From positions 1 to 58,617 of IMG/VR virus record IMGVR_UViG_3300020455_000016: a DNA stretch of 58,617 nt; one strand, written 5' to 3'. This document shows, one piece after another, positions 11,968 through 35,224 of this stretch. This DNA comes from a virus. Taxonomy: Duplodnaviria > Caudoviricetes. Every line of letters starts with the position of its first letter. Within the stretch, counting starts at the first letter, position 1. Both the position numbers and the translations under genes were made by a program. Under the pieces are notes generated by a model. The model was not told the DNA's origin and did not search any database. It was given only the letters and a program-made list of their open reading frames with translations.

Positions 11968-12666
11968 CTATTTCTCTCCAGATTTAATATACCATCCTGT
12001 CAATATATATTTATCTTTGTCGCCACATAGTAATCCACCTCTATGTGTATGAGTAAAACCAGCAGGCCAAACAACTACAGTACCTTGTGTTGGTTTAATT
12101 CTTCTCTTTTGATATAGAAATTCGGTCTCCCCTCCATCATCCACATCATTTAAATATATCATCCATACTATATCTCTTTGATGAAAATAGTATGATCCAT
12201 TCTCGTGATGCCATACATGATACCCACCACCAGGTTTTGTTCTTTGTAACTTAATATCTGATGATAAGAAACCTATCTTTGCTAATACACTATAATAATC
12301 AATATAATGTGTCACACATGATTTAAGAAATTGATTGGTTTGTGTAGTCCAACCAGAATCAGTATAATTTAATAGAAATGATTCATCTTCACGATTATGC
12401 TTACCATTGTACATAGATGCACCATTCATGTACATCACTTCATTACTTTGATCAGTTGCAACTGGCAGTACATCAGTAATTTGTGGATCTATCTTATCAG
12501 ATAATTTCTGATCAAGCATAGCATCACCATATTTTATTATATTATCACACCATGGTTTAGGTACAAAACCTTCCCATACACCAATAAAGTCATCAAAAGA
12601 TGCTTTAGTCAACTTATCATCCTTCATCAAGTTGAGAGGACGATAAGGTGTCAATTTTTCTGTCAT
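11968..12666 (-). CDS. 2OG-Fe(II) oxygenase
   Basis: GGGYHVWHHE, WMIYLNDVDDGGETEF, WPAGFTHTHRG and KYILTGW motifs. Confidence 0.9.
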   Translation of the reverse strand: MTEKLTPYRPLNLMKDDKLTKASFDDFIGVWEGFVPKPWCDNIIKYGDAMLDQKLSDKIDPQITDVLPVATDQSNEVMYMNGASMYNGKHNREDESFLLNYTDSGWTTQTNQFLKSCVTHYIDYYSVLAKIGFLSSDIKLQRTKPGGGYHVWHHENGSYYFHQRDIVWMIYLNDVDDGGETEFLYQKRRIKPTQGTVVVWPAGFTHTHRGGLLCGDKDKYILTGWYIKSGEK

Positions 12667-20873: not shown

Positions 20874-23800
20874 TTATACTTCTATTAGATACCAACCAGT
20901 TTTGGATGTAGGAGCAGCAGTACCACCATCAGGTGTACTATTTCCTACGTATAACAATGCAAACCCAGCAAATGGAGTTTGAACAACTAATTCACCACCT
21001 TGATAAGCACTTAAGTCAGCAGTATTACCTGACAACATTGCAGTTCCTGTATTATCACTAGCGTTTTGTACCTTAACATTTGTTGCTGCTCTAATAACCA
21101 ATGACATGTTGTATGTTAAGAGTCCACCTATATCTATGATACGAATCATATCACCAATTAATGGATTCTGTGGTAGTTTAACAACTGTATTCTGTGAAAC
21201 ATCCAACACATAATTTGTATTGACTGCTGCATTAATTTCAAAGTCAGCAGAGTATTCCCACTTCCTACCACCTGTCTGGGTGAAGTAGTTAGATATACCA
21301 GCAATATTAACAGCACCGTCATTCTCAACACTGAAGATTTTATTTCCTCCAGAATTAATTGTTAAATCACCACCATTAATAGTTGCATCTTTAGTTACAA
21401 CTAGGTCACCACCAAATGTACTTGTACCTGTACCTAGAGCAGAGAATGAACCATATGATGTAAAGTCACCAGAAGAATTAACAAATTTCAATCTTGGTGT
21501 AGTGCCATCATCACCAAAGATATCAATATCACCACCATTGATGGTTAAATCACCAGTTGCAGTATCTACTTCTAATGTAGTTCTCTTTGTGATGGTATTA
21601 GATCCACCATTAGTTAATCTAAACCACTCTGTCTCCTCTACTACTGAACCGTTAAGAGTAAATGAATCCTCAATGGTTAGTTTACCAGCGATAGTGGTAT
21701 CACCAGTAACAGCATTAACAGTTAATTTATTATATCCTTGACCAACACCCAAGTCACCTTGTAGTTTGGTATTTCCTGTTAGTGATTGTACTTCAAAGGT
21801 TCTATTCTCTGGATCTCCACCATCAGTTACAATTAGAGATTTAATCTCTGTACTGATAAGATCTACAACCTTAACTATCTCTGTATCAGATAGTAAGAGA
21901 TAATCAAATTCCGTTAAGACTCCACCAAATTCTGCAACACCTATCCTTACATTTTGATCATCATCAATAAGATTAGAAGCACTCTTGACTCTAATCTCTG
22001 CTTCTGTTGGTTCATTATCCCAAAGTACTGTACCAGCAGCAAGATTACCTCCTATCTTAACTGTACATGATGTACCAGTAGGAGTTAAACCACTCTGCAC
22101 AATCCACTCACCATTTAATTCTGATGTTGTACTACCACTAATAGCGATAGACTCACCATAATCAATACTCAAATCAGCATTAGTCTTACTGTTACCCCAG
22201 TTGATAGTTAGAATGTCATTTCCAGTAGAAACCAGAGTTGTACCAGCAATATCTGTATTAGATAACAGGAGACTTGATATAGGATCTATCTCATCATCAA
22301 GATCAAGGTCAAATCCTGTAATGTATGTTGCGTTAACTTGCTTATCAAGTTTAGCAATGACACAATCATCTGGGTGATCAGTTCTCTTTGTAGTACCATC
22401 AAGTCCACGACTAACTGCTAATCTATAACCATCTGGATCATTACCATTAGTAATGTTAATTAATCCTTCAACTCTAACTATCTCATTCTGATTCTCATTC
22501 TTGGTAAGTGTTGTACCATTTGGATTCAAACCATTAGGAGAACTTGCATGACCTCTTTCAATTAGTAGTAAGTCACCAATCTTAAAGTCAGTAACAGAAG
22601 GTTGTGTTATTGGTAAAACATATAAAGAACCAGATGCATTAACACCTTGAACTTTAAATGTAATATCATCACCACTTGGATTACCTAAAGAAGCAGCAGA
22701 TATTGTAAGATCATCATTATCTACGTAATTAGATCCTGGAGCAACTACCTCAATAGTAGCATTTCCACTAGCGTCAACAATGACTGTGAATAATGCTCCT
22801 GTACCCTGTCCACCTGTAACTTCTACGAATGAGTATGTAGTATTAGCAACCCATGTAGAACTCTGTGATGGAGAAATAGTATCGATATTAACAATTTGAC
22901 CTGATGAAACTAGATATGAATCTCCACCCCAAGGTCCAACACCCTGTGTATCAATCAACTTACCTGTATTACTATACTTAAGGAAGTCTACGTTAGGATT
23001 TTCAAGAGAACCTACAACATGTGTTGATCTTCCTGCACCAAACCTATCTCTTTCTATTTCAATAATACCTGCTTTCTGTCCACCAACCAATTTGATGTCA
23101 GAATTACCAGTTGTACTTGCAAGAATGTTAAGACTATTCCTTACGGTAGTGCTACCACCAAGAGATGCAATCTCAACTTTAGAAGAGTTAAGACCTAATG
23201 TTAGATGAGTAGTATCAGTACCATCAAATACATTAACCTTACCTGCTTGAGTAAAGATACGTGTTTCGGATGTACCAGCAAAAGAACCGATCTCTAATGT
23301 ACCAGCAGTCTTTGTCTGATATGTACCAATCAGTGTTGAACTAGCAGGATTTGCAGCAGCACCACCAAGAGTGATAGTACAACTACTTGTTACCTGATCA
23401 GTAGCACTACCAATATCTACGATAGAACTACTAGTTCCTTTGTGTATCTCAAGTATACTATTACCAGCAGAAGCACCCATTCTAAATGTATGGGTTTGAC
23501 CAACAGCAACGTTGTTACCAACGTTTATTTGTTGTGACTGTGTGGTATTATTACCAAGAACGATAGACTCTGCATTGTTTAGACCAATGAAGAAGTCTGT
23601 ATCAGTATTAACGAAATTGAATGTTCCAGCAGTACTGTTAATGTCTCCACCATCAACACTTAAATCTTCAGTTATTTGAACATTTCCTGTAAATCTTGCA
23701 TCACCAACAACAACCAAGTTTTTATCTAATTCATTCTCTGCTGCTAAACCAATGGTAGTGTTAATACCAACACGTCCACCGTTAGCAGTAGAAACACGTA

Positions 23801-26800
23801 ATGTAGCAGCATTATTTGGAGTGGCACTATCACCACCAACCAAGAATGCATTTGTTACATCGAAGTATGTTTTGTTATTTGATGGTTCAGATAGATAATT
23901 ATTTGCTGTAACATCACCATTAGCGTCATAAGTAACAAGAGACTTACCAGAGATGAATGCTGTACCAACAACATCTAGGTTAGCACGAGGTTCTGTATCC
24001 TCATTTACATGACCAGTTAAAGCACCCTCAATTGCCATTCTAGCAATTGTGTTAACACCTAACTGAAGATCGCCTGGTACCTGTGTCTCTGTACGTAGTA
24101 CTTCAGCACCGATTACACCTAGTTCCTTCCAACTAGAATTAGATACCTCTAGTTTAGCACCAGCACCTTGTGAGTCCCAGTCATATACTTCAGCACCAAT
24201 TGTGTTGTATACTACAATCTTACACTTATTATTATCAACACCTGCCTGATCTGCCTCGGTAATAGTCCAGATACCATTTATAAATGTATTGCTAAAGTTA
24301 GAAATACGTAATAAATTACCTACCTGAACACCAAGTCCAGCATTATCACTACCAACTTGCCACTCAATCTCTACTGTTGTAGTATTATCAGCAGTTACCT
24401 TAAGGATATTAGAATCAGTAATCTCTGTATAGTAGTTTGCATAGATCCATCCCCATGAACCAGACTTACCTACTTCCTTACCTTTAAGAAGAATATCTCC
24501 ATCTACTGGTGTATTAGAAGAACCATATGTAATAGTCTGTTCAGCATAGAATGAATTGCCACCACTAGCAACTAATGCAGTCTGATTAGGTGTAGTATTT
24601 GATGGTTTACCACCTGTATAATGTGTCTTTATAGTATAAACCTGACCTGGATCAGAGAGATTACCTCTTGGGTTAAATGCAAATACAGCAGCATTAACTT
24701 GGTTCTCGGTTAGAACAATATCACCAGACTTATTATTAATGAAACTTTGACGTGAAAGTGTTGGATCGCCAGTTGAAGCATCAATTAAACTTTGTACACG
24801 TAAAGAATCACCAACAGAAGGATCAACAGTAATGGTTACAGGATTCTGGAAGAATGCCTCACCTTCAACAGTAATCTTATCATTGAATGTAACAGCAGTA
24901 TCAAATGTTGTTACTAATACACCAATCTTGTCATCATCATCCTCTGTCTCAAGAAGTAATGCTTGTTCAAGGAAGGTTTCTTCGCCTGTAATAGCGTTGA
25001 TCTTCTTGTTACCTATATAAAGGTCTCCGTTGGAGTTTAGACCTGTGTAGAAGACTATACCGCCATCTTCACGTTTTGCTTGAGCATAGAAGTCTTGCTT
25101 GTCTGAAAGAACAACTTCCTGACGTACAGGGAAACCAGTTGAATAGTTACCTGGACCAAAACCAAGATATTCAAACGTATGGTTACCAGATCTAGCAATA
25201 GATGGTCTTCTTAATTCAACATAGAATCTACCTTCTAATGGATATGCAGAGTCACCAGCAATAGATATCTGTCTGTTCTCTGAACCTATAGAGGCATTAC
25301 CAGACTGTGCTTGAATTCTATTATCAATAATATTACTTGCTAAATCAGATGTACTATTAGTATATTCATATGGTGCTAAAGGATCAGTCTCTAATAGATC
25401 AACCACTGCTTCTTTAGTCTCACTGAACTTACTATCGTTTAGGGTTACATAACCGTGGATGTAGTTGTGAGCAGCAGCAACTGATGATGGTGGATCAAGT
25501 TTAGTTGTATCTCTAGATCCATCTACCTGAACTTGGAACCATAAGGGGTCATTCTTAAAGTTTAAAGGATATAGATTAGAAATTGGTTGTGAGAACTTAT
25601 AGTTCTGGAAATTATTACCTACACCAGCACCTGTTGGGAATGGTGAGATATTACCACGTACACATGTTAAGTAGTAGATACCTTCCTGTTGGTTAGGAAT
25701 AACTTCTTGAATTGTTTCACTATTAAAGATGTAGAATGTATCTTCGATTTCAGGTACGTCTGATAGTCCAGCAATCGTATAAGTATGACCTGTTGGTGTA
25801 GTTACCTTATCACCAGGAGTTACTGTATATACATTAGCACCTGCTACTCTATAAAGATAATTAGAAAGACTAGATCTTGACTTATCATCAGTTGTTCCAG
25901 CAGCATCTGGATTACCATTTAGTAACCAGAACGTTCCATTAGATTGTGTAAATGTTGTAGTAAGACTCGCATCATATTCAAGTTTTCCTGTTGTATTCTT
26001 AAGTATGACATAATCATCTGATGATATAGGATCTGTATAATATCCATGAACATAACCAGTACCTGTGTTATTACCAGTCCATGTTACAAAGTTAGTTTCA
26101 GTGTTATTAAGTAGATCTGTTTGTATGCCAGCACCTTGAGGTGGTGTAATCTTAATAATTACAAATTGCTCATTCTTGAGTAATGCATTGTCAACAGTAT
26201 GATCAAATACAGTTAGTTCTAATCTATCATCAGATAAGTTATTTTGAACTGTCTTTGCACTTTGAATTGTTACCTTAACTTTACTATCAAATTCAATTTG
26301 TAATCCATTATTATATGCATCATAGAATAGATTATCGTTGTCTAAATCAGTAACACCTGCAGTATCAAGATCTGTTAGAGATAAACCTAACTGTTCAGTA
26401 GGACGTGCTGGGTTACTAAATTCAGCAACATCTGGAGCACCATTACTAAATGGTTCTAGATAGAATTTCTGTGGTCTTAATTTTCTTCTATCATCTGTTC
26501 TTGTCTTAATGACATAACCATTAAGTGGTTCTCTTACGTTCTGTAAATATTGTGGAATAACATAACGTAAACGATAGATACGATCATCAGGAGTTCTCTC
26601 ATCCTCTAGTCTCTCAAACCATGTATCAGGTGAAAAGAGATTACCAGTACCATCTAGGAAGTCAGCAGCATGGAATCTAGTCAGAATATTATTTGGATCA
26701 GCACCACCAACAGAATCTGGTTTAACATTTAAGTACCAACGTTGATATACTTCTGCATCATATTTTAAAGGACTGGTTATTTTATCACCATATGCTAGGA

Positions 26801-29800
26801 AGTCACTACCACTGTTAGCAGTAAATACTACTGCATTAACACCTGCTCTAGCATCTGACTCTGATGTATGAACACTAAACTTGGTCTTCGTTACCCATCT
26901 TGGATAGTAATAAGTATTAGAATCTACTACACCACCACCAGCAATAGTTGGTAGTTGAGAACTAGCATCAGCAGAAGTCTTAAAGAATATTTTCTGTACA
27001 GATACAGAATCCAATGGCATATCAAATACGTGTGGAATATCTGTTTCGATATTAGTACCACTTACGTTACAAATATAACGATGTAGATCATACTTATCAT
27101 CTAGTACATACTGTTGAATCTCTACATCTACACCAGTATCAACGTAATCTGTTTCTGGAGAGAAGATGTATATACCAGCAGCAGCATTCTCTTTAGATGC
27201 AGCAAGCATTAATTTTGTAGAATTTGTTCTATCAAATTCTTTTCCTGCTCCATGCCATGTCTTTGGATATGTTTCTCTACCTGGAGCAATTACATAATAG
27301 ATTTGGTTAGTAGCAAATCCTACTGGAAGTCTTACAAGTCTCTTGTCCAAAGCATAATTTGCTTTTGGTACAAGTCTTACAGGTGTACCAGTTGTCCATC
27401 CATGTGGGTCAGATTGACCACCACCAGTAGCAATAGTGAATATTGTAGCACGACCAGACAATGAAGAAGAATTGATGATTGCTTCTACTCTTGTTATTGA
27501 TGATGCATTACCTGATAAAATAAGATTAAAAGTATCGTAGTAACCTTGTATTGCACTAGCAATATTTGTACACTCTGGATACTGTGTATCAATAGTAATG
27601 GTCTCATCTGTATACTGGGATTCAGTAGCATAAGTGGCTGTATTCTTAAAGTACAACCAAGCAGTTGATGTACCAGCAGATGTAACAGTATATGGACTAC
27701 CAGTACTTCTATCCTTTATACTAATTGTTGTAGCATTAATAACCTGATCAATAACAAGATTAGATCCAGGAATATTATTTACAACTGCACTTGTAGCAGT
27801 TGTATCAACGTATCCTTCAGTAAAATCAGACTGAAGATATTCAGTAACTGTCATTCCTGATACTAGTCCAGAAGTATCACCAACAATTACATTGGAACTA
27901 TTTTGTGTAAAGGTACAATTCTTAATTAGAAGTGTAAAGTTACGCATTGCACCAAACATCAATCGTTTGGCGTGATCCATAGCATCTAATGTTTCTGATA
28001 ACTCATTGGTAATATAGTTAACAGTATTGCCTTGGATGTATGATTCACCAGCATTAATACTATTGATGTTACCACCAACACGTAAATCCTTGATAACAGC
28101 ATCAACAAAGTATCCAATATCTCTTGCACACTTGGTGATAGTGATAGCAGGATTAGTTACAAGTGCTGGATATTTTGCTGTAATATAACCATATGTTTCA
28201 GATGCAATCCAATCCTTATTCCTTTCAATAAGAGTTGCAGCATCTTGAGCAGTGTTGAAATCATCAGTTGCATCACCACCAATTTCAAATGAAGTATTGA
28301 AATCAGCAGGTTTTAATGTTGATAGTGAAGCAGTGTATGATGTCCATCCACTTGGTGATAGTTCAGCATGATATGTTTGCTTACCACCAGCACCAACTGA
28401 TTGTAACTTAACATAGAGTTCCTCTCCTGACTTGGCACCTATTCTATATCCACCAATATTAGCAGCAGGTCTATCTGCAGGACTTTGATTATTATCACCA
28501 GAAAGGAATAGTTTTGTGTGGTTTGACTGATCATTAGACTTTTCGATATCTAATGTATAGTACTGTTGCTTAACAGTTGCAGTAGCAGAAGTATTAACTA
28601 CTTTAGGTGGAATAATAGCATCAATATATCCACCTTTATCTTGATTAAAGGCAAATCCCTTAAATCCTTTGGAGTGGAGTGAAGTATTACCAAAGTTACT
28701 GTTAGAGTTGGTGATACTCATATCACCACCAGACTCTAGTAAGAAGTGGTTGTGGAATCCAACAGCGAATACTGAAACTGCCTGTATAAATGCATCATCA
28801 GTACATTTGATATGGAAGTTTCTCCAGTCATCCTTCCAGAATGCATCACCTTTAGTATGATATGGAACAGTAGCAAATGCATCAGATAATGATGCTTGAT
28901 TCCATGTGTTATTAAATCTATCGTAACGGATGAATGCTCTATCGTCTTTCTGTAGAGATACACCAGTGTATTGGGCAACAACCATAGACTTGAATCCAGT
29001 TACCATGGATCCATCTGCCCACATACCACAAATACCCCATGTAGATCTGATGGAACAGTTGAATACGTATGGTGATGCAGATTCAACAGAGTCAATTTCT
29101 GCTTGTATAAGAGCACCAGATCCTAATTGACCTGCTGCAGCAGTGTAAGTAGCACCAGATACTAATCCAAGACCAGCAGCATTAGTTGGTATCTCATATG
29201 TGAATAATTTATCGTTAGTTGAATCAATTGTAGTTACTTTCCATGTACCATTAATTTCATTAGATAGTCCAGTGTTAAGTACAGCAACGTACTGTCCTAC
29301 GAAATAACCATGGTCAATCTTGGTTGTAACAGATAATGTAGAAGATGATCCACCAGCATTATCTTCAATTTTAATACTCTCGATTGATCTAGTATCAGAT
29401 AGAGGACCAACAATTCTGGTTTCTTGTACAAGAGCATCAAATTCTCCATCATCTATAGTAGGTTGGAACTGTGCAAATGCTTTTCCTACCTTTGTATAGT
29501 AGAGATCTAGTTCATCATTACCAGCATAAGTCATCACAGTGAGCTTATGGTGAGAATATTCAGGAACTGATAGTGATGAGAAATCACCTTTCTTATTATA
29601 AACCTTACCTACATTATCAGCAGCATCATAAAGAGGTGAATTTGTAGATAAATCACCATCCTTAATAGTAAACTGCCATAAGTAGCAACCACCAGTTAAA
29701 TTAAAGACAGAAGACCTAGGTTGATCTCCATCTATACAATCAGGAACATATAGTGGTCTAACAATTGTTCTACGTAGGTCATAACCTATTAGTGAACAAC

Positions 29801-32800
29801 CTCTAGGTACGATAGTACCACCAGTAGAAGCGTTGAACTTATAAAGAACGTTGTCTGGGTTAGAAAGATCTAGAATACTATCATCTTGCCACTCTTCTAA
29901 TGCTGAATTATAATTGAAGATAGGTACTGTACCTGTAACCTGTACAGAAGCAAGGTTATTAAGATTAGCAGCACTGATAGTACTTGTTAAAATATTTGTT
30001 AATGTAATGATGCTAGATTGTACATCAGAACATGCCTGTGGATTACCAGATAAACCATAGTCAATATCTGGTGCACCTTGAGTACCAGCAACTGCTGGTC
30101 CTGGACTAACATCTAAATTTTTCGCATATAATTGGTTGCTGACTGCTTTTGTCATTGCATCACGAGCACCATTAAATGCAGTAACAGACTCGGCAACCTC
30201 ACCTGTTAATCCATTAACGATTGGATTACCATCACGATCAAAATATGTCTTTGTATTAGAAATGGTATTACTATTACCACCATTTTTCAAGTCAGATACA
30301 ACAGCATCAATAAAATACCCAATATCTCTCTTGCATTTTTCTTCTCCTGCAGGAATCTTTGCAGAAACTGATTCTACAGGTAGATTAGTTAGATTACCAT
30401 CAGTAATTGTTGATGTAACAAGAGCAGTTAAGTTTCCAATAAATGACTGAATATCAGCACAAAGGTTAACATTCTCTCTATTATTCTGGTTATCAGCAAA
30501 TGTTACTGAATTTTCAGTAGATTCTACAAACGTATGACCATAATTACCACCAGTAATCAATGCTCCAGAAATTGCATCATGGAATGTATGAGCAGTAACG
30601 TTAGAAGATGTACCGACATTAAGTTTTATCTTACCATCTTGTCTTGTTAAACTATTAGCAACTGAACTTTCCCATGTATGATTATAGTTACCACCAGCAG
30701 TTACTGCACCAGGATCTGAACCAACATATTGGTGTACAGAGGTATCAGGAGAAATACCAATATCAACTGTAACTGTTGTACCAGTTGTAGATATAATTGG
30801 AAGTAACGAATTGTATGCTGGATCACTAGTACGAGGATATGAGTGAATACTCTGATTACTATCATATCCACATGTGAAATCTATAGTATTAGCACCAATC
30901 TTGATTGAATCACCTGCTTTTACTATTCCTGAAGGAGTTGCAGAAACCCACTCATGAGCATATGCACCACCAGTCTTAACTGCATCAGCAACTGCTTCTG
31001 AAAATGTGTGTAAGTAGTTACCACCACTAATTACTGCACCACTATTTGCTGTTACAAATGTATGAACAGATTGATCAGATGAAACACCAACATTAACTGA
31101 AATTTTACCAGTCTGTTTCTTCATTCCACCTGCTACAGAACCTTGGAATGTATGTTGTGAAGTATTATATGATGTTCCTACCTGAACTGTAAAATTGTCA
31201 TCTGTTACATTACTAATTTGCAACCATCTTCCTACTACAGGATCTGTAGCTCTAGGATATGTGTGTTGAGTAGCATTGCTATCCTTCTCACAAGTAAATA
31301 TTAAAGAATTTGGTTCAAAACTAACTCTATCGCCACTATTAAATCCATGACCTGTTAACTTAACAGTTAATTCTCCAGTAATTGGATTATAAGCACTACC
31401 AATTTCTGGTTGATGAGAAGTTACTGCAACATTAGTAATAGTAACAGCAGTATCGTATGCTGGATCATCAGCAGTTGCACCACCTTGACCAGTTGCACGA
31501 GGATATAAATGCTGGGTTTGATCACTATCAGCAGCACATGTAAAGATAATTGATTCGTTCTCTAACTTAATGCTAGATCCTTCAATTAAATCATGCTGTC
31601 CAATATCTAATACAAGATTACCTGTAGAAGGAGTATAATCTGCATCAGAAACGTTATAATTTACAATAGGAGATGAACCTACATTAATAGTAATATCTCC
31701 ATTTTGCTTCTTAAGACCAAAATCAGTAGCACTAACAAAAATATGTTGTGATATATCTTCTGATACACCAACAGTAACATCAAACGTTTGGAAATTAGTC
31801 CCCTGAATGTTTACACTCGCTACATTACTTATAGTTAACCACTGACCACTAACAGGATCAGTAGAACGAGGATAAGGATGGTTAGATTGGTTATTATCTC
31901 TAGCACAAGTAAATGTTATAGACTCATCTGCAAGCATTATTTTGTCACCATTCTGGAATCCAGTTCCAGAAGTGGTTATTGACAATACACCAGCAACAGG
32001 ATCATATTCAGCAGTATTTACAGTAAAATCTGTTGTACCAACAGATGTGATAGCAGTTGGTTCATGTGAAACAGGATCTGTTGCACGAGGATAAGTCTTA
32101 ATAGAACTATTACCATCCATCTCACAAGTAAACTTGAGAGAATCCTGATTTATCATCAAGTTGGTTCCTGATTTTAAATCATGAGATCCAACAGTTAATG
32201 TTAAATCACCATTTGCAGGGTTATATGTAGCACCTGTAGGTGTATAATTTACAGTAGGAGTTGCACCAACATTAACTTTGAATGAATCATTAGCAATGTC
32301 AGTAATTGGTAAGAATTTACCACTTGCAGGGTCAGTAGATCTTGGATATGCATGCTCGGAATTCTTTCCGTCCATATCACAAATGAATACTAATGATCCA
32401 TCTTCTATCTTAATTCTATCACCATCAGTATATCCATGATTATTAATGCTAATTACTAGATCACCAGTAACAGGATCAAAAGTAGCACCTTCTGCTGTTT
32501 TATTAGTAGGTCCACTAAAAGAATGAGTACCAATCTCAAGTTCCAACAAACCTGTTGTTGGAGTATAGTCAGCATCACTAACATTATATGCTACATCAGG
32601 TGAAATACCAACATTAACTTCAAATGATGTTGCATCTACATTAGAAATCGGCAACCACTGCTTACTAGCAGGGTCTGTAGGACGTGGATATGCATGATCA
32701 GTAGAATAACCATCTTTTGCACACTTAAAGGTTATAGCACCATCATCCAACTTAATGAAATCACCATTTTGGAAAGTATGAGCTCCAATATCAATTGTTA

Positions 32801-34124
32801 AAATACCAGTAGTTGCATTATACTTTGTCTCTGAAGTAGGAGTATATGTAGTACCAACACTAGTAATTTGTAATGCTGCGTTGTATGCTGGGTCAGTAGT
32901 ACGAGGATATGGATGAGTAGTAGCACCACCATCTTCATCACACTTGAATATGATTGATTCTCCTGCTAATTTAACAGTTTCACCTTTTCCAAGTGTATGA
33001 GCACCAATATCAAGTATTAATTCACCAGTTGTAGGATCATACTCTGCACCTGTTGGTGTGTAGTTAACGATAGGTGTAGCACCAACATTAACTTCTATGT
33101 GGTTAGCATCTGCTACATTTACGATCTCTAGGTACTTACCAGCAGCAGGGTCACTTAATCGTGGATATGTATGATTAGATACATTATTATCCTGATCACA
33201 AGTAAATGTAAGTGAATTTGCCTCAATATTGATGTGATCACCAACTGATAACTGGTGATTTGTAATTTCTAATATTAACTTACCATCAGCAGGAGTGTAA
33301 TCAACATCAGATGGTTTAAATTGCTTTGTTACAGAACCATAATCAGATCCTGGTGCATTATCAGCAGTAATTGTTAGATCTTGTGCTGATAACTGGTTAG
33401 CAATAGCAAGGAACATATTGTCTCTTGCTTTATTAAATCCAAAAATTGCTTCTGCTTCTTCGCCTTGTAAACTACCATTCAACCATGTCTGTCCAGATTC
33501 ATTAAAGAATGTCTGAAGGAATTTACGTGTGTATTGATTACCATCTGCTTGAGCAACATCAAGTGATATTGCATCAATAAAGAGACCTAAATCTCTTTTA
33601 CACTTATCTTCATATTGCCCATGAGTAGAATATTGAGCAAGAGTAGCATTCCAAGAATTATTAATAATTTCTTGACGGTTTAATTGAGAAAGTCTAAATG
33701 CGTCCTTATATCTTGAGTAGTCTTCAGTTTGATTATCTGTAGGGTAGAAAAAGTCAGGGTGATTTATAGCAATTTCAGCAGCACCACGATCAATAATTGT
33801 CTGCCTATTTGCAATAATTAGATTAGCACCATCAAAATATCTTGCTTCAGGATTAGCAGCCTCAACTAATCCAGGTCTGTTATCAATATAGTGATTACCA
33901 GGCATCAACATGATGCTAAACTGGTCGAATCTATCGTTATCCTTACCTGGAAGATAAGAATACCTAGAAACCTCTATAAAAGCTCTCTGAATCGTCTTGA
34001 ATGGACGTAGAGGTGAATTACCTCTGTTATCTAACTCATCAGTCGCATTAAAATCATCTGGCGACACATATAGGTACTTACCTGTTTTACTTGAATATAG
34101 GTTATCAAGTCTTGTTAAGGGCAT
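20874..34124 (-). CDS. Giant virion structural / fibre protein (4416 aa)
   Basis: MPLTRLDNL...YVSPDDFNATD...GNS..RPFKTIQRA N-terminus of the conserved cyanomyovirus giant protein; beta-helix-like segments; C-terminal LPQNPLIGDMIRIID...GWYL; late promoter upstream. Confidence 0.85.
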   Translation of the reverse strand: MPLTRLDNLYSSKTGKYLYVSPDDFNATDELDNRGNSPLRPFKTIQRAFIEVSRYSYLPGKDNDRFDQFSIMLMPGNHYIDNRPGLVEAANPEARYFDGANLIIANRQTIIDRGAAEIAINHPDFFYPTDNQTEDYSRYKDAFRLSQLNRQEIINNSWNATLAQYSTHGQYEDKCKRDLGLFIDAISLDVAQADGNQYTRKFLQTFFNESGQTWLNGSLQGEEAEAIFGFNKARDNMFLAIANQLSAQDLTITADNAPGSDYGSVTKQFKPSDVDYTPADGKLILEITNHQLSVGDHINIEANSLTFTCDQDNNVSNHTYPRLSDPAAGKYLEIVNVADANHIEVNVGATPIVNYTPTGAEYDPTTGELILDIGAHTLGKGETVKLAGESIIFKCDEDGGATTHPYPRTTDPAYNAALQITSVGTTYTPTSETKYNATTGILTIDIGAHTFQNGDFIKLDDGAITFKCAKDGYSTDHAYPRPTDPASKQWLPISNVDATSFEVNVGISPDVAYNVSDADYTPTTGLLELEIGTHSFSGPTNKTAEGATFDPVTGDLVISINNHGYTDGDRIKIEDGSLVFICDMDGKNSEHAYPRSTDPASGKFLPITDIANDSFKVNVGATPTVNYTPTGATYNPANGDLTLTVGSHDLKSGTNLMINQDSLKFTCEMDGNSSIKTYPRATDPVSHEPTAITSVGTTDFTVNTAEYDPVAGVLSITTSGTGFQNGDKIMLADESITFTCARDNNQSNHPYPRSTDPVSGQWLTISNVASVNIQGTNFQTFDVTVGVSEDISQHIFVSATDFGLKKQNGDITINVGSSPIVNYNVSDADYTPSTGNLVLDIGQHDLIEGSSIKLENESIIFTCAADSDQTQHLYPRATGQGGATADDPAYDTAVTITNVAVTSHQPEIGSAYNPITGELTVKLTGHGFNSGDRVSFEPNSLIFTCEKDSNATQHTYPRATDPVVGRWLQISNVTDDNFTVQVGTSYNTSQHTFQGSVAGGMKKQTGKISVNVGVSSDQSVHTFVTANSGAVISGGNYLHTFSEAVADAVKTGGAYAHEWVSATPSGIVKAGDSIKIGANTIDFTCGYDSNQSIHSYPRTSDPAYNSLLPIISTTGTTVTVDIGISPDTSVHQYVGSDPGAVTAGGNYNHTWESSVANSLTRQDGKIKLNVGTSSNVTAHTFHDAISGALITGGNYGHTFVESTENSVTFADNQNNRENVNLCADIQSFIGNLTALVTSTITDGNLTNLPVESVSAKIPAGEEKCKRDIGYFIDAVVSDLKNGGNSNTISNTKTYFDRDGNPIVNGLTGEVAESVTAFNGARDAMTKAVSNQLYAKNLDVSPGPAVAGTQGAPDIDYGLSGNPQACSDVQSSIITLTNILTSTISAANLNNLASVQVTGTVPIFNYNSALEEWQDDSILDLSNPDNVLYKFNASTGGTIVPRGCSLIGYDLRRTIVRPLYVPDCIDGDQPRSSVFNLTGGCYLWQFTIKDGDLSTNSPLYDAADNVGKVYNKKGDFSSLSVPEYSHHKLTVMTYAGNDELDLYYTKVGKAFAQFQPTIDDGEFDALVQETRIVGPLSDTRSIESIKIEDNAGGSSSTLSVTTKIDHGYFVGQYVAVLNTGLSNEINGTWKVTTIDSTNDKLFTYEIPTNAAGLGLVSGATYTAAAGQLGSGALIQAEIDSVESASPYVFNCSIRSTWGICGMWADGSMVTGFKSMVVAQYTGVSLQKDDRAFIRYDRFNNTWNQASLSDAFATVPYHTKGDAFWKDDWRNFHIKCTDDAFIQAVSVFAVGFHNHFLLESGGDMSITNSNSNFGNTSLHSKGFKGFAFNQDKGGYIDAIIPPKVVNTSATATVKQQYYTLDIEKSNDQSNHTKLFLSGDNNQSPADRPAANIGGYRIGAKSGEELYVKLQSVGAGGKQTYHAELSPSGWTSYTASLSTLKPADFNTSFEIGGDATDDFNTAQDAATLIERNKDWIASETYGYITAKYPALVTNPAITITKCARDIGYFVDAVIKDLRVGGNINSINAGESYIQGNTVNYITNELSETLDAMDHAKRLMFGAMRNFTLLIKNCTFTQNSSNVIVGDTSGLVSGMTVTEYLQSDFTEGYVDTTATSAVVNNIPGSNLVIDQVINATTISIKDRSTGSPYTVTSAGTSTAWLYFKNTATYATESQYTDETITIDTQYPECTNIASAIQGYYDTFNLILSGNASSITRVEAIINSSSLSGRATIFTIATGGGQSDPHGWTTGTPVRLVPKANYALDKRLVRLPVGFATNQIYYVIAPGRETYPKTWHGAGKEFDRTNSTKLMLAASKENAAAGIYIFSPETDYVDTGVDVEIQQYVLDDKYDLHRYICNVSGTNIETDIPHVFDMPLDSVSVQKIFFKTSADASSQLPTIAGGGVVDSNTYYYPRWVTKTKFSVHTSESDARAGVNAVVFTANSGSDFLAYGDKITSPLKYDAEVYQRWYLNVKPDSVGGADPNNILTRFHAADFLDGTGNLFSPDTWFERLEDERTPDDRIYRLRYVIPQYLQNVREPLNGYVIKTRTDDRRKLRPQKFYLEPFSNGAPDVAEFSNPARPTEQLGLSLTDLDTAGVTDLDNDNLFYDAYNNGLQIEFDSKVKVTIQSAKTVQNNLSDDRLELTVFDHTVDNALLKNEQFVIIKITPPQGAGIQTDLLNNTETNFVTWTGNNTGTGYVHGYYTDPISSDDYVILKNTTGKLEYDASLTTTFTQSNGTFWLLNGNPDAAGTTDDKSRSSLSNYLYRVAGANVYTVTPGDKVTTPTGHTYTIAGLSDVPEIEDTFYIFNSETIQEVIPNQQEGIYYLTCVRGNISPFPTGAGVGNNFQNYKFSQPISNLYPLNFKNDPLWFQVQVDGSRDTTKLDPPSSVAAAHNYIHGYVTLNDSKFSETKEAVVDLLETDPLAPYEYTNSTSDLASNIIDNRIQAQSGNASIGSENRQISIAGDSAYPLEGRFYVELRRPSIARSGNHTFEYLGFGPGNYSTGFPVRQEVVLSDKQDFYAQAKREDGGIVFYTGLNSNGDLYIGNKKINAITGEETFLEQALLLETEDDDDKIGVLVTTFDTAVTFNDKITVEGEAFFQNPVTITVDPSVGDSLRVQSLIDASTGDPTLSRQSFINNKSGDIVLTENQVNAAVFAFNPRGNLSDPGQVYTIKTHYTGGKPSNTTPNQTALVASGGNSFYAEQTITYGSSNTPVDGDILLKGKEVGKSGSWGWIYANYYTEITDSNILKVTADNTTTVEIEWQVGSDNAGLGVQVGNLLRISNFSNTFINGIWTITEADQAGVDNNKCKIVVYNTIGAEVYDWDSQGAGAKLEVSNSSWKELGVIGAEVLRTETQVPGDLQLGVNTIARMAIEGALTGHVNEDTEPRANLDVVGTAFISGKSLVTYDANGDVTANNYLSEPSNNKTYFDVTNAFLVGGDSATPNNAATLRVSTANGGRVGINTTIGLAAENELDKNLVVVGDARFTGNVQITEDLSVDGGDINSTAGTFNFVNTDTDFFIGLNNAESIVLGNNTTQSQQINVGNNVAVGQTHTFRMGASAGNSILEIHKGTSSSIVDIGSATDQVTSSCTITLGGAAANPASSTLIGTYQTKTAGTLEIGSFAGTSETRIFTQAGKVNVFDGTDTTHLTLGLNSSKVEIASLGGSTTVRNSLNILASTTGNSDIKLVGGQKAGIIEIERDRFGAGRSTHVVGSLENPNVDFLKYSNTGKLIDTQGVGPWGGDSYLVSSGQIVNIDTISPSQSSTWVANTTYSFVEVTGGQGTGALFTVIVDASGNATIEVVAPGSNYVDNDDLTISAASLGNPSGDDITFKVQGVNASGSLYVLPITQPSVTDFKIGDLLLIERGHASSPNGLNPNGTTLTKNENQNEIVRVEGLINITNGNDPDGYRLAVSRGLDGTTKRTDHPDDCVIAKLDKQVNATYITGFDLDLDDEIDPISSLLLSNTDIAGTTLVSTGNDILTINWGNSKTNADLSIDYGESIAISGSTTSELNGEWIVQSGLTPTGTSCTVKIGGNLAAGTVLWDNEPTEAEIRVKSASNLIDDDQNVRIGVAEFGGVLTEFDYLLLSDTEIVKVVDLISTEIKSLIVTDGGDPENRTFEVQSLTGNTKLQGDLGVGQGYNKLTVNAVTGDTTIAGKLTIEDSFTLNGSVVEETEWFRLTNGGSNTITKRTTLEVDTATGDLTINGGDIDIFGDDGTTPRLKFVNSSGDFTSYGSFSALGTGTSTFGGDLVVTKDATINGGDLTINSGGNKIFSVENDGAVNIAGISNYFTQTGGRKWEYSADFEINAAVNTNYVLDVSQNTVVKLPQNPLIGDMIRIIDIGGLLTYNMSLVIRAATNVKVQNASDNTGTAMLSGNTADLSAYQGGELVVQTPFAGFALLYVGNSTPDGGTAAPTSKTGWYLIEV
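30498..33330 (-). repeat. Nine nested ~100-aa beta-domain repeats inside the giant protein
   Basis: Nine YPR motifs, each preceded by F.C..D, and nine closing H.[FWY] strands. Confidence 0.85.
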
Positions 34125-34156
34125 AACTAACCGAACCGTGCTACTTCTACTTGTTG

Positions 34157-34164
34157 TATTTATA
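34157..34164 (-). promoter_or_regulatory. T4-type late promoter
   Basis: TATAAATA 32 bp upstream of the giant gene. Confidence 0.8.
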
Positions 34165-34184
34165 CTATGAAATCCACAATGACA

Positions 34185-34697
34185 TTATGATGGCGATATT
34201 TTCTTAAATTCGAAACTACCATGCTTCGAACCCCATATTTGTTCTGCTGTTCCCACTTTAAAACCTCTATCTACAACATTATAATAATCTTTACCTAAAA
34301 CCACATCAGTTTGTAAATATGTCATTTCATTTTTCCATGGAACAAGACAGTCACAATGATTATTACTTCCTCTAAATTCTCTTCCATTAAAAGTGCATAT
34401 ATTATCACATTCAGGTTTAGGGGTTAATTCCAAAGATTCCAAATCTTTGAAACCCCTATGCTTTGGTTTGTCGAACGTAAAGTTCTTAATTCTTATATTA
34501 TCTCCCTCTTCTACTGGTTCTATAACAAATGTCCTATACGGGGAATTTAACTGATAGTTATATGCTTGTTCCCCGTAAAAATAGTTTCCTACCCGTTTAT
34601 GAATAATCCTGACCATAGCAAATCTGGCAGGATATGTAAACGCTTGTACTTTATTCTCCCATGTTCCTTCAAACCATTCACGAAATTTATCAATCAT
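34185..34697 (-). CDS. cpeT: CpeT/CpcT-like (T-type) phycobilin lyase
   Basis: WFEGTWENKVQAF.YP..FA.V...H, YGEQAY....PYR, CD...CDC, DRGF....QIWGS..G.FEFKK; MIDKF start chosen. Confidence 0.9.
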   Translation of the reverse strand: MIDKFREWFEGTWENKVQAFTYPARFAMVRIIHKRVGNYFYGEQAYNYQLNSPYRTFVIEPVEEGDNIRIKNFTFDKPKHRGFKDLESLELTPKPECDNICTFNGREFRGSNNHCDCLVPWKNEMTYLQTDVVLGKDYYNVVDRGFKVGTAEQIWGSKHGSFEFKKISPS

Positions 34698-35004
34698 CTT
34701 TTGGCAATAATTCAGGATCATTAACTGGTAATTCAAAACAGAGTGGATGGCATTCTTCCTCCATTAGGTACGAATGCCAACGATACAACTGTTCATCATA
34801 ATATTCTTCACTTTCTAATGCTTCAGTATGAACTGAAGGATGATCTTGTATAATCTGTGGTAATTCGTCGAAGGTGTAAGGAATACCCTGAATGAAATAC
34901 ATCCTTACCACATTACCCATATAAAAGACATACTTTTGTGAAAGTACGTACTCCATATCACTCGTCGTATACTCTACATTCGAATGCATCGGGATGATTG
35001 TCAC
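34690..35004 (-). CDS. Conserved cyanophage hypothetical protein
   Basis: VRMYFIQGIPYTFDELP...YLMEEECHPLCFEL motif. Confidence 0.8.
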   Translation of the reverse strand: MTIIPMHSNVEYTTSDMEYVLSQKYVFYMGNVVRMYFIQGIPYTFDELPQIIQDHPSVHTEALESEEYYDEQLYRWHSYLMEEECHPLCFELPVNDPELLPKDD

Positions 35005-35224
35005 AATAGACTTCTAGATGCTGATCCTCATGTCTTGTATGATAATCATTAATCTTACCCTCATTAGTATTTACTTCATCACCTTTATGGTATTCATCAT
35101 ACTCTGCATGAACATCCTTGAGATCTGCTTCACTATATTCCAACATACCATGATTGATATGCTCTTTCTTATCTTTAGGATCGATATAGACCTCGTGATC
35201 TAAATCGTGCTTTGGAGTTGTCAT
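34958..35224 (-). CDS. cp12: CP12-like Calvin-cycle inhibitor (atypical N-terminus)
   Basis: C-terminal LEVYCDNHPDAFECRVYDE is the CP12 C-terminal Cys pair. Confidence 0.8.
   Translation of the reverse strand: MTTPKHDLDHEVYIDPKDKKEHINHGMLEYSEADLKDVHAEYDEYHKGDEVNTNEGKINDYHTRHEDQHLEVYCDNHPDAFECRVYDE

Follow-up and report, generated by a model that had tools for sequence, protein, structure and literature searches.

Phycobiliprotein-like units in a giant tail-fibre-type protein of a cyanophage as candidate carriers of bilins

Why should a phage keep the gene for a bilin lyase homologue directly upstream of the gene for a giant tail-fibre-type protein? The question is raised by the virus record IMGVR_UViG_3300020455_000016 (58,617 nt, analysed over its full length and called the window here), which is a fragment, approximately 30% complete, of the genome of a T4-like cyanomyovirus. 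On its minus strand, cpeT is followed by an open reading frame (ORF) of 4416 aa, in which three units resemble phycobiliproteins and contain the word Lys-Cys-x-Arg-Asp at the position of a chromophore-binding Cys. We propose that these units are bilin-loaded phycobiliprotein-type domains of a virion protein, and we assign to this reading a probability of about 0.5.

The three units and their predicted fold

The giant gene and its units are arranged as follows.

20874..34124, minus strand: giant 4416-aa tail-fibre-type structural gene (P0001), from the ORF list, the translation and PHROG tail-fibre/virion families
33387..33758, minus strand: phycobiliprotein-like unit 1, aa 123-246, with the codon of Cys175 at 33600-33602; motif and profile match
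30120..30491, minus strand: phycobiliprotein-like unit 2, aa 1212-1335, with the codon of Cys1264 at 30333-30335 and a Cys-led first helix from Cys1222; motif and profile match
29916..30119, minus strand: loop and terminal Cys-led helix behind unit 2, aa 1336-1403, with the codon of Cys1365 at 30030-30032; motif and low-confidence AlphaFold model
27915..28286, minus strand: phycobiliprotein-like unit 3, aa 1947-2070, with the codon of Cys1999 at 28128-28130; motif, phmmer, profile match and AlphaFold model
27480..27914, minus strand: insert and terminal Cys-led helix behind unit 3, aa 2071-2215, with the codon of Cys2185 at 27570-27572; from the sequence only

The word K-C-x-R-D occurs exactly three times in the protein (K174/C175, K1263/C1264 and K1998/C1999), and a profile of the units, when applied to the ORF, also gave exactly three matches. 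The residues K, C, R, D, G, F, D and A are invariant among the three copies. Since Cys makes up only about 0.6% of the residues, three such words are far beyond chance, and the units are regarded as homologous repeats. The ORF list, the translation and the motif positions agree with the first-pass annotation of the window, which had described the ORF with its strand and residue numbers, the motif at Cys175, Cys1264 and Cys1999, and helices led by Cys1222, Cys1365 and Cys2185. Its statement that a segment of the form DA..LI..N...I is present in every unit applies to units 1 and 3; in unit 2 its place is taken by the Cys-led first helix, of which a further copy lies behind the unit. As read from the genes alone, the protein is a putative component of the virion: it matches phrog_4527 over aa 2208-4416 (E 0) and phrog_701 over aa 134-351, is a member of tail-fibre/virion families (PHROGs 4527, 529, 5342 and 701), and its gene is located in a tail/baseplate module.

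The relation to phycobiliproteins emerged from a profile of 58 units, which were picked by the word C.RD.G. In the comparison of this profile with PDB, all 51 rows were phycobiliproteins or engineered derivatives of them, ten of them at E<=1e-3, and the best was the beta chain of phycoerythrocyanin (E 2.6e-4). The alignments comprise helix B, the loop and helix E (chain residues ~29 to 104) and place the Cys of the unit on Cys82/84. They span approximately 60-70 residues, that is two helices and a loop, with the G-G turn at equal spacing. With single sequences, phmmer returned phycobiliproteins in seven of ten PDB rows for unit 3 (best E 0.043) and phycocyanin alpha chains in 10 of 14 rows for the region of unit 2 (E 0.11-0.98), the latter aligned on Cys84. 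The alpha-phycocyanin motif at Cys84 that had been quoted in the first-pass annotation reappears in the PDB alignments, with the same eight residues and the same spacing to G-G. All three units of the window carry the counterpart of the chromophore Cys82/84 with Arg at +2 and Asp at +3. The N-terminal X-Y hairpin of the phycobiliproteins is missing: the matches in sequence and structure begin at chain residue 21-40, and where the units are in tandem, their period of 108 aa is too short to accommodate it.

The same relation was found at the level of predicted structure. AlphaFold2, run on the alignment of the 58 units with unit 3 as first row, gave a model of six helices with a predicted local distance difference test (pLDDT) score of 78.9. 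Every row shown by Foldseek for this model was a phycobiliprotein (best E 9.4e-3, template modelling (TM) score up to 0.75). A structure-only search over 48,161 chains by VIA-align, which does not use Foldseek, ranked phycoerythrin first (5aqd_M, Z 11.6, root-mean-square deviation (rmsd) 2.7, 122 of 124 residues), followed by two allophycocyanin-type chains (Z 11.5 and 11.3), a photocobilin (11.2) and four chains of ApcE (10.0-10.9). All of the top ten rows were bilin-binding globins (Z 9.3-11.6, with 105-122 of the 124 residues aligned); below them came colicin S4 (Z 9.2), globin sensors (6-8) and haemoglobins in the Z 5-8 range. The predicted structure contains the globin-like helical core (helices A/B, E, F, G and H). 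Thus, the PDB profile comparison, Foldseek and VIA-align support the view, put forward when the window was first annotated, that the units adopt the globin fold of phycobiliproteins, this fold being a predicted one. Looking up unit 3 in the ESM Atlas gave no usable match.

For aa 1202-1403, comprising unit 2 and its flanking helices, the AlphaFold model was poorer (pLDDT 64.8) and matched RsbR-type globins (Z 9.5) and allophycocyanin (Z 8.1). In this low-confidence model the terminal Cys-led helix takes the place of helix H (model residues 54-183 on 8or7_A 70-159, Z 8.1), and its alignment with helix H was seen against allophycocyanin and phycoerythrin. In the model, the terminal Cys-led helix may thus provide helix H of unit 2, and it might mimic the T-type (beta-153) site, an idea of which the low-confidence model is the sole basis.

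Could the units instead be an unrelated helical repeat, in which a short chance motif was amplified by the structure predictor? Several results can be taken in this sense, and they also weigh against bilin-loaded phycobiliprotein-type domains. The E-values are modest, 2.6e-4 at best. With unit 1 alone, none of the three PDB rows of phmmer was a phycobiliprotein. A profile of the 18 units of tandem type did not reach significance against PDB (four of six rows phycobiliproteins, E 0.53-0.98), and its first-ranking row was a papillomavirus capsid protein. The Pfam family of the phycobiliproteins, PF00502 (Phycobilisome), matched nothing in the record at E<=10, so that its curated threshold was not reached, and the 4416-aa protein matched no Pfam family at E<=0.1. 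Among the Foldseek rows for unit 3 there was none at E<=1e-3, and the motif may have biased the AlphaFold prediction. Finally, the best Z of 11.6 is below approximately 13, the level which, as VIA-align warns, helical bundles reach by arrangement alone; therefore we give weight to the ranking and to its agreement with the sequence profile rather than to the Z value. On the other hand, the 51 PDB rows come without exception from a single family, the alignment extends over some 60-70 residues in two helices and a loop with the G-G turn in register, and the structure-only search puts bilin-binding globins first. Moreover, the bilin-related genes in the vicinity of such units (see below) played no part in building the profile and structure tests. 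Taken together, convergence appears very improbable to us, and the units are probably homologous to phycobiliproteins.

The 4416-aa protein harbours a second repeat at approximately 30700-33300 of the window (minus strand, aa ~270-1150), with about nine copies of ~75-120 aa and the word F.C..D......YPR..DP. It matches phrog_1276, phrog_5342 and phrog_18802 and has one Cys per copy (Cys309, 395, 468, 582, 667, 740, 863, 945 and 1085), so that the remaining conserved Cys residues of the protein belong to this second, unrelated repeat.

A large family with a conserved Cys site

The units of the window belong to a large family of globin-fold domains of approximately 108-125 aa, which are present singly or in tandem in giant tail-fibre/baseplate proteins. 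A first scan of viral contigs with the word C.RD.G yielded 23 loci with 129 units, and some of the proteins contain 15-19 tandem units with a period of 108 aa. When 1.84 billion representatives were searched with the 58-unit profile, 1523 proteins matched at E<=1e-3, and single proteins contained as many as 36 units. Because the units of this profile had been selected on the Cys word, conservation was re-counted by profile hits. In the 23 loci, Cys was present in 147 of the 152 units covering its column. Of the 1658 units in the best 150 representatives, 1594 cover the site; 1532 of these have Cys, 1526 have Arg(+2), 1574 have Asp(+3) and 873 have Lys(-1). The profile leans to Cys-bearing units, and such counts are therefore upper estimates. 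At an overall identity of ~20-35%, the columns of Cys, Arg and Asp belong to the five best conserved of about 110.

Of the 2923 Cys residues in these 150 proteins, 1532 are motif Cys residues, and 1268 of the 1532 Cys-bearing units (83%) have no other Cys. An intradomain disulfide therefore cannot account for the conservation. What could account for it, apart from a bilin, is another ligand in the same fold (biliverdin or heme bound non-covalently, or a metal), or the use of the Cys in an inter-subunit disulfide or cross-link during fibre assembly. A lone conserved Cys would suit this explanation, heme-binding globin-fold sensors are present in the VIA-align list (Z 6-8), and heme oxygenase alone yields biliverdin. 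However, Arg at +2, Asp at +3 and Lys at -1 correspond to the bilin-site pattern of the aligned phycobiliproteins and not to a heme-ligating His, and bilin reductases and a bilin lyase are encoded among the genes that co-occur with the units. We consider another ligand or a cross-link to be improbable.

Two further observations concern the Cys residues. In the tandem-array phages the motif Cys is the sole Cys of the unit. The T4-like cyanophage proteins (L006, L009, L011 and L013-L015) contain a second unit type, in which a conserved Cys opens the first helix in the form C-x-[DN]-[VI]-[QR]; arrays of this type close with one extra copy of the Cys-led helix, and one copy has Tyr in place of Cys.

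The distribution of the units was analysed with two tblastn queries against 50,697 phage records. They matched 330 and 87 records, all of which are named Synechococcus or Prochlorococcus phage, Cyanophage, or, in one case, marine virus. The same picture was obtained with a library of predicted structures of viral proteins. Thus, nothing in the tblastn results pointed to the situation that the first-pass annotation had named as fatal to its idea, namely domains that are equally common and equally Cys-conserved in phages of hosts lacking bilins. Most uncultured carriers have bilin synthesis genes of their own. Among 15 large uncultured records, psbA was found in none and CpeT in three. The capsid protein of G004, a phage of the tandem-array type, is 54% identical to that of a Microcystis phage and 51.5% identical to that of a Flavobacterium phage. 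When genome contigs were scanned with the alignment of tandem-type units, six loci were found in metagenome-assembled genomes (MAGs) labelled Yoonia, Crocinitomicaceae, Rhodobacteraceae and Neomarinimicrobiota (L032-L037). We rejected these labels as evidence on the hosts in view of the G+C content of 37-39% and the T4-like phage genes; the six loci are probably phage contigs that were mis-binned into bacterial MAGs.

The company of cpeT and of bilin synthesis genes

Upstream of the giant gene the window contains the following features.

34185..34697, minus strand: cpeT, encoding a T-type bilin lyase homologue of 170 aa from the ATG at 34697; Pfam PF06206 (E 6.5e-31) and phrog_488
34690..35224, minus strand: two small conserved, translationally coupled ORFs (phrog_4134 and phrog_2603) upstream of cpeT, the nearer of which overlaps the ATG of cpeT
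34157..34164, minus strand: TATAAATA, a word resembling a T4-type late promoter, 33-40 nt upstream of the ATG of the giant gene

CpeT matches PF06206 over the full length of the family (108.1 bits against a cut-off of 21; residues 18-179 on profile positions 2-181 of 181), in agreement with the original observation that the giant gene lies directly downstream of cpeT. The ATG at 34697, where the first-pass annotation also ended its feature, is the likely start and overlaps the stop codon of the preceding small ORF. The order on the minus strand is a gp5-type baseplate hub gene, a second hub/lysozyme gene, the two small ORFs, cpeT, the 4416-aa ORF, and then fibre, collar and chaperone genes; the tail tube gene is also among the neighbours. 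Unit 3 and CpeT recur in a virus record derived from a marine single cell, with identities of 96.6% and 98.9%, respectively. No gene for a bilin reductase or heme oxygenase was found among the annotated ORFs of the window, which is an approximately 30% complete fragment. The word TATAAATA resembles what we take to be the T4 late-promoter consensus. With three copies in the window it is less frequent than expected by chance (9.1), so that its position alone, and not its count, speaks for a late promoter, which makes this assignment no more than suggestive.

In addition to the window, cpeT is located directly upstream of the giant gene in 8 of the 23 related loci (L001-L004 and L009-L012). Starting from cpeT, we analysed the 50 longest of 80 viral records selected for this gene. 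The domain was present in 43 of them, including all five that are at least 90% complete, and the contigs of the seven others all run out 0-2.2 kb behind cpeT. In the listed cases, the first unit is located downstream of cpeT on the same strand, at a distance of approximately 0.4-7 kb. The comparison across phages, which had been recommended at the outset, thus revealed a tight neighbourhood. The order gp5, small ORFs, cpeT, fibre genes is also found in S-CAM1 and P-HM2. In S-CAM1, the likeness of the small ORFs between gp5 and cpeT to the pair in the window is one of position, and tRNAs and a 2-oxoglutarate (2OG)-Fe(II) oxygenase gene separate cpeT from the domain gene. In P-HM2, cpeT likewise follows gp5 and precedes fibre genes, yet the units are 35 and 63 kb away. 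Of five complete cultured genomes, S-CAM1 has cpeT and the domain without the reductase, P-HM2 has all three, P-SSM2 and Mosig have the reductase only, and P-SSP7 has none of them. This means that cpeT and the domain are both present or both absent in all five. Since cpeT was found in only 164 phage records, all of them cyanophages, many domain-bearing phages are without a detectable cpeT.

Does this neighbourhood make phage CpeT the lyase of the units? Phage CpeT was reportedly the subject of a study by Gasper et al. in 2017 in the Journal of Biological Chemistry (JBC). In phycobiliproteins the Cys82/84 site is served by S/U- or E/F-type lyases and not by T-type lyases, and it is with Cys82/84 that the motif Cys of the units aligns. 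A role of CpeT as lyase for the units is possible, and we put it forward tentatively. The CpeT homologue of the 271-kb record G060 has 233 aa and is 33% identical to CpeT of the window over just 87 residues.

The link to bilin synthesis was analysed from both sides. Among the 50 longest of 80 viral records selected for a bilin reductase, the domain is encoded on the same contig in 25; for records of at least 80 kb the number is 14 of 16, including one complete genome of 357 kb. Starting from the domain, a reductase was found in 7 of 29 records and in five of the six that are at least 90% complete. For comparison, relatives were sampled by their capsid protein, a procedure which is blind to both domain and reductase. 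The 15 new relatives obtained in this way contained the domain in two cases and the reductase in none, and the two complete ones had neither. For this comparison, one-sided Fisher tests gave p = 0.107 when genomes of at least 90% completeness were counted (5/6 vs 0/2) and p = 0.022 with the threshold at 45% (7/13 vs 0/7). In G008 one 335-kb contig (C57) carries both the cassette of heme oxygenase and reductase (49-52 kb) and the domain proteins (80-83, 252 and 265 kb). The 271-kb record G060 encodes heme oxygenase, reductase, CpeT and a 13-unit protein and lacks psbA. Between the 357-kb and 271-kb types the reductases share only 29% identity, which suggests that at least two lineages besides the cyanomyoviruses combine these genes. 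Phage contigs binned into MAGs are also accompanied by such cassettes; one MAG bin contains three phage contigs with giant proteins and three heme oxygenase-reductase cassettes.

These counts have their limits, which also burden the idea that the units are loaded with bilins. They come from few related lineages and are not phylogenetically independent. The Pelagibacter phage Mosig and P-SSM2 have the reductase without the domain, and the strict rule that a reductase implies the domain was rejected for this reason. The 96% complete G064 has units and no reductase, CpeT or psbA. It follows that the bilin genes have other roles too and that the domain does not always travel with them. Added to this are some units of jumbo phages which lack the Cys or the whole motif, and the alignment of the motif Cys with a site that is not the canonical one of T-type lyases. 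All support for a covalent bilin on the units is computational, and we consider such a bilin plausible, with the chances evenly balanced.

These points lead to the explanation that the units are a relic. According to it, a phycobiliprotein was captured from a cyanobacterial host and now serves as a rigid helical spacer of the fibre without bilin, C-x-R-D being kept for folding or packing, while cpeT and the bilin genes, as classically assumed for auxiliary genes, act on the antennae of the host and their nearness to the fibre genes merely reflects conserved synteny. Capture from the host predicts that the cultured carriers are all cyanophages, as is the case, and the synteny of structural modules is generally conserved in T4-like cyanophages. 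The reductases of Mosig and P-SSM2, which point to other uses of the bilin genes, and the loss of the motif in some units are also in line with a relic. It is hard to explain by packing alone, however, that Cys, Arg and Asp rank in the top five of about 110 columns over 1594 units and that the Cys is the only one in 83% of the Cys-bearing units. Further, psbA-free carriers possess a complete set of genes for heme oxygenase and reductase, in some cases also for CpeT, and domain-free relatives are without reductase. We regard the relic as rather unlikely.

Several other genes near such loci should be mentioned. Genes for 2OG-Fe(II) oxygenases are present at 11968-12666 of the window (minus strand), L024 7146-7745 and L203 1596-5451. 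The one of the window is located among the fibre genes, and the one of S-CAM1 has been mentioned above, between cpeT and the giant gene. In Mosig, five such genes are upstream of heme oxygenase and reductase, the nearest adjoining the heme oxygenase gene, and a ferrochelatase is encoded there too. The 2OG-Fe(II) oxygenases may modify fibre proteins or tetrapyrroles. G060 encodes a GroEL-type chaperonin approximately 1 kb from its heme oxygenase-reductase cassette (L205 3617-5221; L206). The complete 357-kb genome G009 encodes CsgG, CsgF and a curlin-repeat protein (L207 3082-5227), with one unannotated ORF between these and the cassette.

Possible loading of the units and comparison with known systems

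From the motif, the predicted fold, the profile homology, the conservation, the neighbourhood and the co-occurrence we infer that bilin binding, a role of CpeT and a light-related function could be connected as follows. The units keep the Lys-Cys-x-Arg-Asp chromophore site (82/84), and each would bind a linear tetrapyrrole by a thioether at the Cys. The bilin would be provided by the cyanobacterial host or by the heme oxygenase and bilin reductase of the phage. Late in infection the units would fold and take it up, and Arg, Asp and Lys would hold the tetrapyrrole as in phycobiliproteins, judging from the aligned motif. In cpeT-bearing lineages the adjacent CpeT might act as lyase or bilin chaperone, as its neighbourhood suggests, and in lineages without cpeT the attachment could be autocatalytic, by analogy with the bacterial bilin biosynthesis-associated globins, or BBAGs (as described in part of PMC13446030). 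In this way bilins would end up on the adsorption apparatus of the finished virion.

It is tempting to speculate that such a virion possesses its own photoreceptor. Bilin-loaded units on the baseplate or the fibres would gate adsorption, which would explain why the adsorption of cyanomyoviruses can depend on light independently of host photosynthesis. The same assumption would also explain the presence of cpeT and of enzymes leading from heme to bilin in phages, including psbA-free ones with possibly non-photosynthetic hosts. According to the sections of PMC6628666 used here, P-HM2 does not adsorb in the dark and the adsorption of S-PM2 is light-dependent, while P-SSM2 and P-SSP7 adsorb in the dark; tail fibres are proposed there as light sensor, with no receptor known. 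We found the domain in P-HM2 and S-PM2 (also G105) and not in P-SSM2 and P-SSP7. The presence of the domain thus fits in all four phages, an anecdotal agreement in a tiny sample which is confounded with lineage. A virion-borne photoreceptor is in our opinion unlikely.

The identification of bilins on these units would be important for several reasons. It would provide a role for phage CpeT, placed in a fibre gene module, a reason why phages that possibly do not infect cyanobacteria make bilins, and a candidate light sensor for the light-dependent adsorption of cyanomyoviruses. Some "auxiliary metabolic genes" would become genes of virion maturation. To our knowledge, it would also be the first time that the tail apparatus of a phage is seen to incorporate a tetrapyrrole cofactor. 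In practical terms, a compact, lyase-associated bilin-binding module of approximately 110 aa could be of use as a fluorescent tag. Even if the units turn out to be empty, they would clearly illustrate how an antenna protein of the host came to be used as a structural repeat.

Literature searches and term searches in PMC10151467, PMC11480375 and PMC13446030 yielded no paper describing phycobiliprotein-like domains in phage virion proteins. Of the known systems, the alpha and beta chains of phycobiliproteins (phycocyanin, phycoerythrocyanin, phycoerythrin and allophycocyanin; PF00502) are the best matches of the units in sequence and structure. Like the units with their predicted globin-type core, they have Lys-Cys-x-Arg-Asp at the opening of helix E and G-G approximately 18 residues further. 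Unlike them, the units are without the X-Y hairpin, have a length of only ~108-125 aa, are embedded singly or in tandem in virion proteins of 1000-6000 aa, and remain below the Pfam threshold. The core-membrane linker ApcE is similar to the 4416-aa protein in that a phycobiliprotein-type domain is part of a very large multidomain protein, and four of its chains match the model of unit 3 (4xxi_A, 7eyd_19, 9wg7_N2 and 7sc7_BD, Z 10.0-10.9). ApcE attaches its bilin autocatalytically; it differs in being a cellular antenna protein with one such domain. The globin domain of photocobilin (8j2y and 8j2w; Z 11.2 and 9.3, rmsd 5.2-5.8) provides a bilin-binding globin-type fold in a photoreceptor. It is bacterial and fused to a B12 domain, and no sequence match with the units was seen.

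BBAGs are phycobiliprotein relatives outside antennae which accompany heme oxygenase and bilin reductase (Rockwell, Martin and Lagarias 2023, PMC10151467, in the portions consulted), and in part of a later report they are described to take up bilins on co-expression (Protein Sci 2026, PMC13446030). In the consulted portions of PMC10151467, the mentions of phages concern reductases only. Compared by description, BBAGs are small stand-alone bacterial proteins encoded in operons, whereas the phage units form part of virion proteins whose genes are located away from the cassette; they share a genome with heme oxygenase and reductase, but not an operon. In the passages of Wegner et al. (2024, PMC11480375) that bear on this question, the purpose of phage hemO and reductase is called "still enigmatic", and BBAG-like acceptors are raised as a possibility. 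The phage hemO-pcyX/pcyA cassette and CpeT are the same genes that accompany the domain described here. They encode enzymes, whose acceptor in phages infecting non-cyanobacterial hosts is termed "enigmatic" in that paper, while the units are candidate acceptors and represent a separate family.

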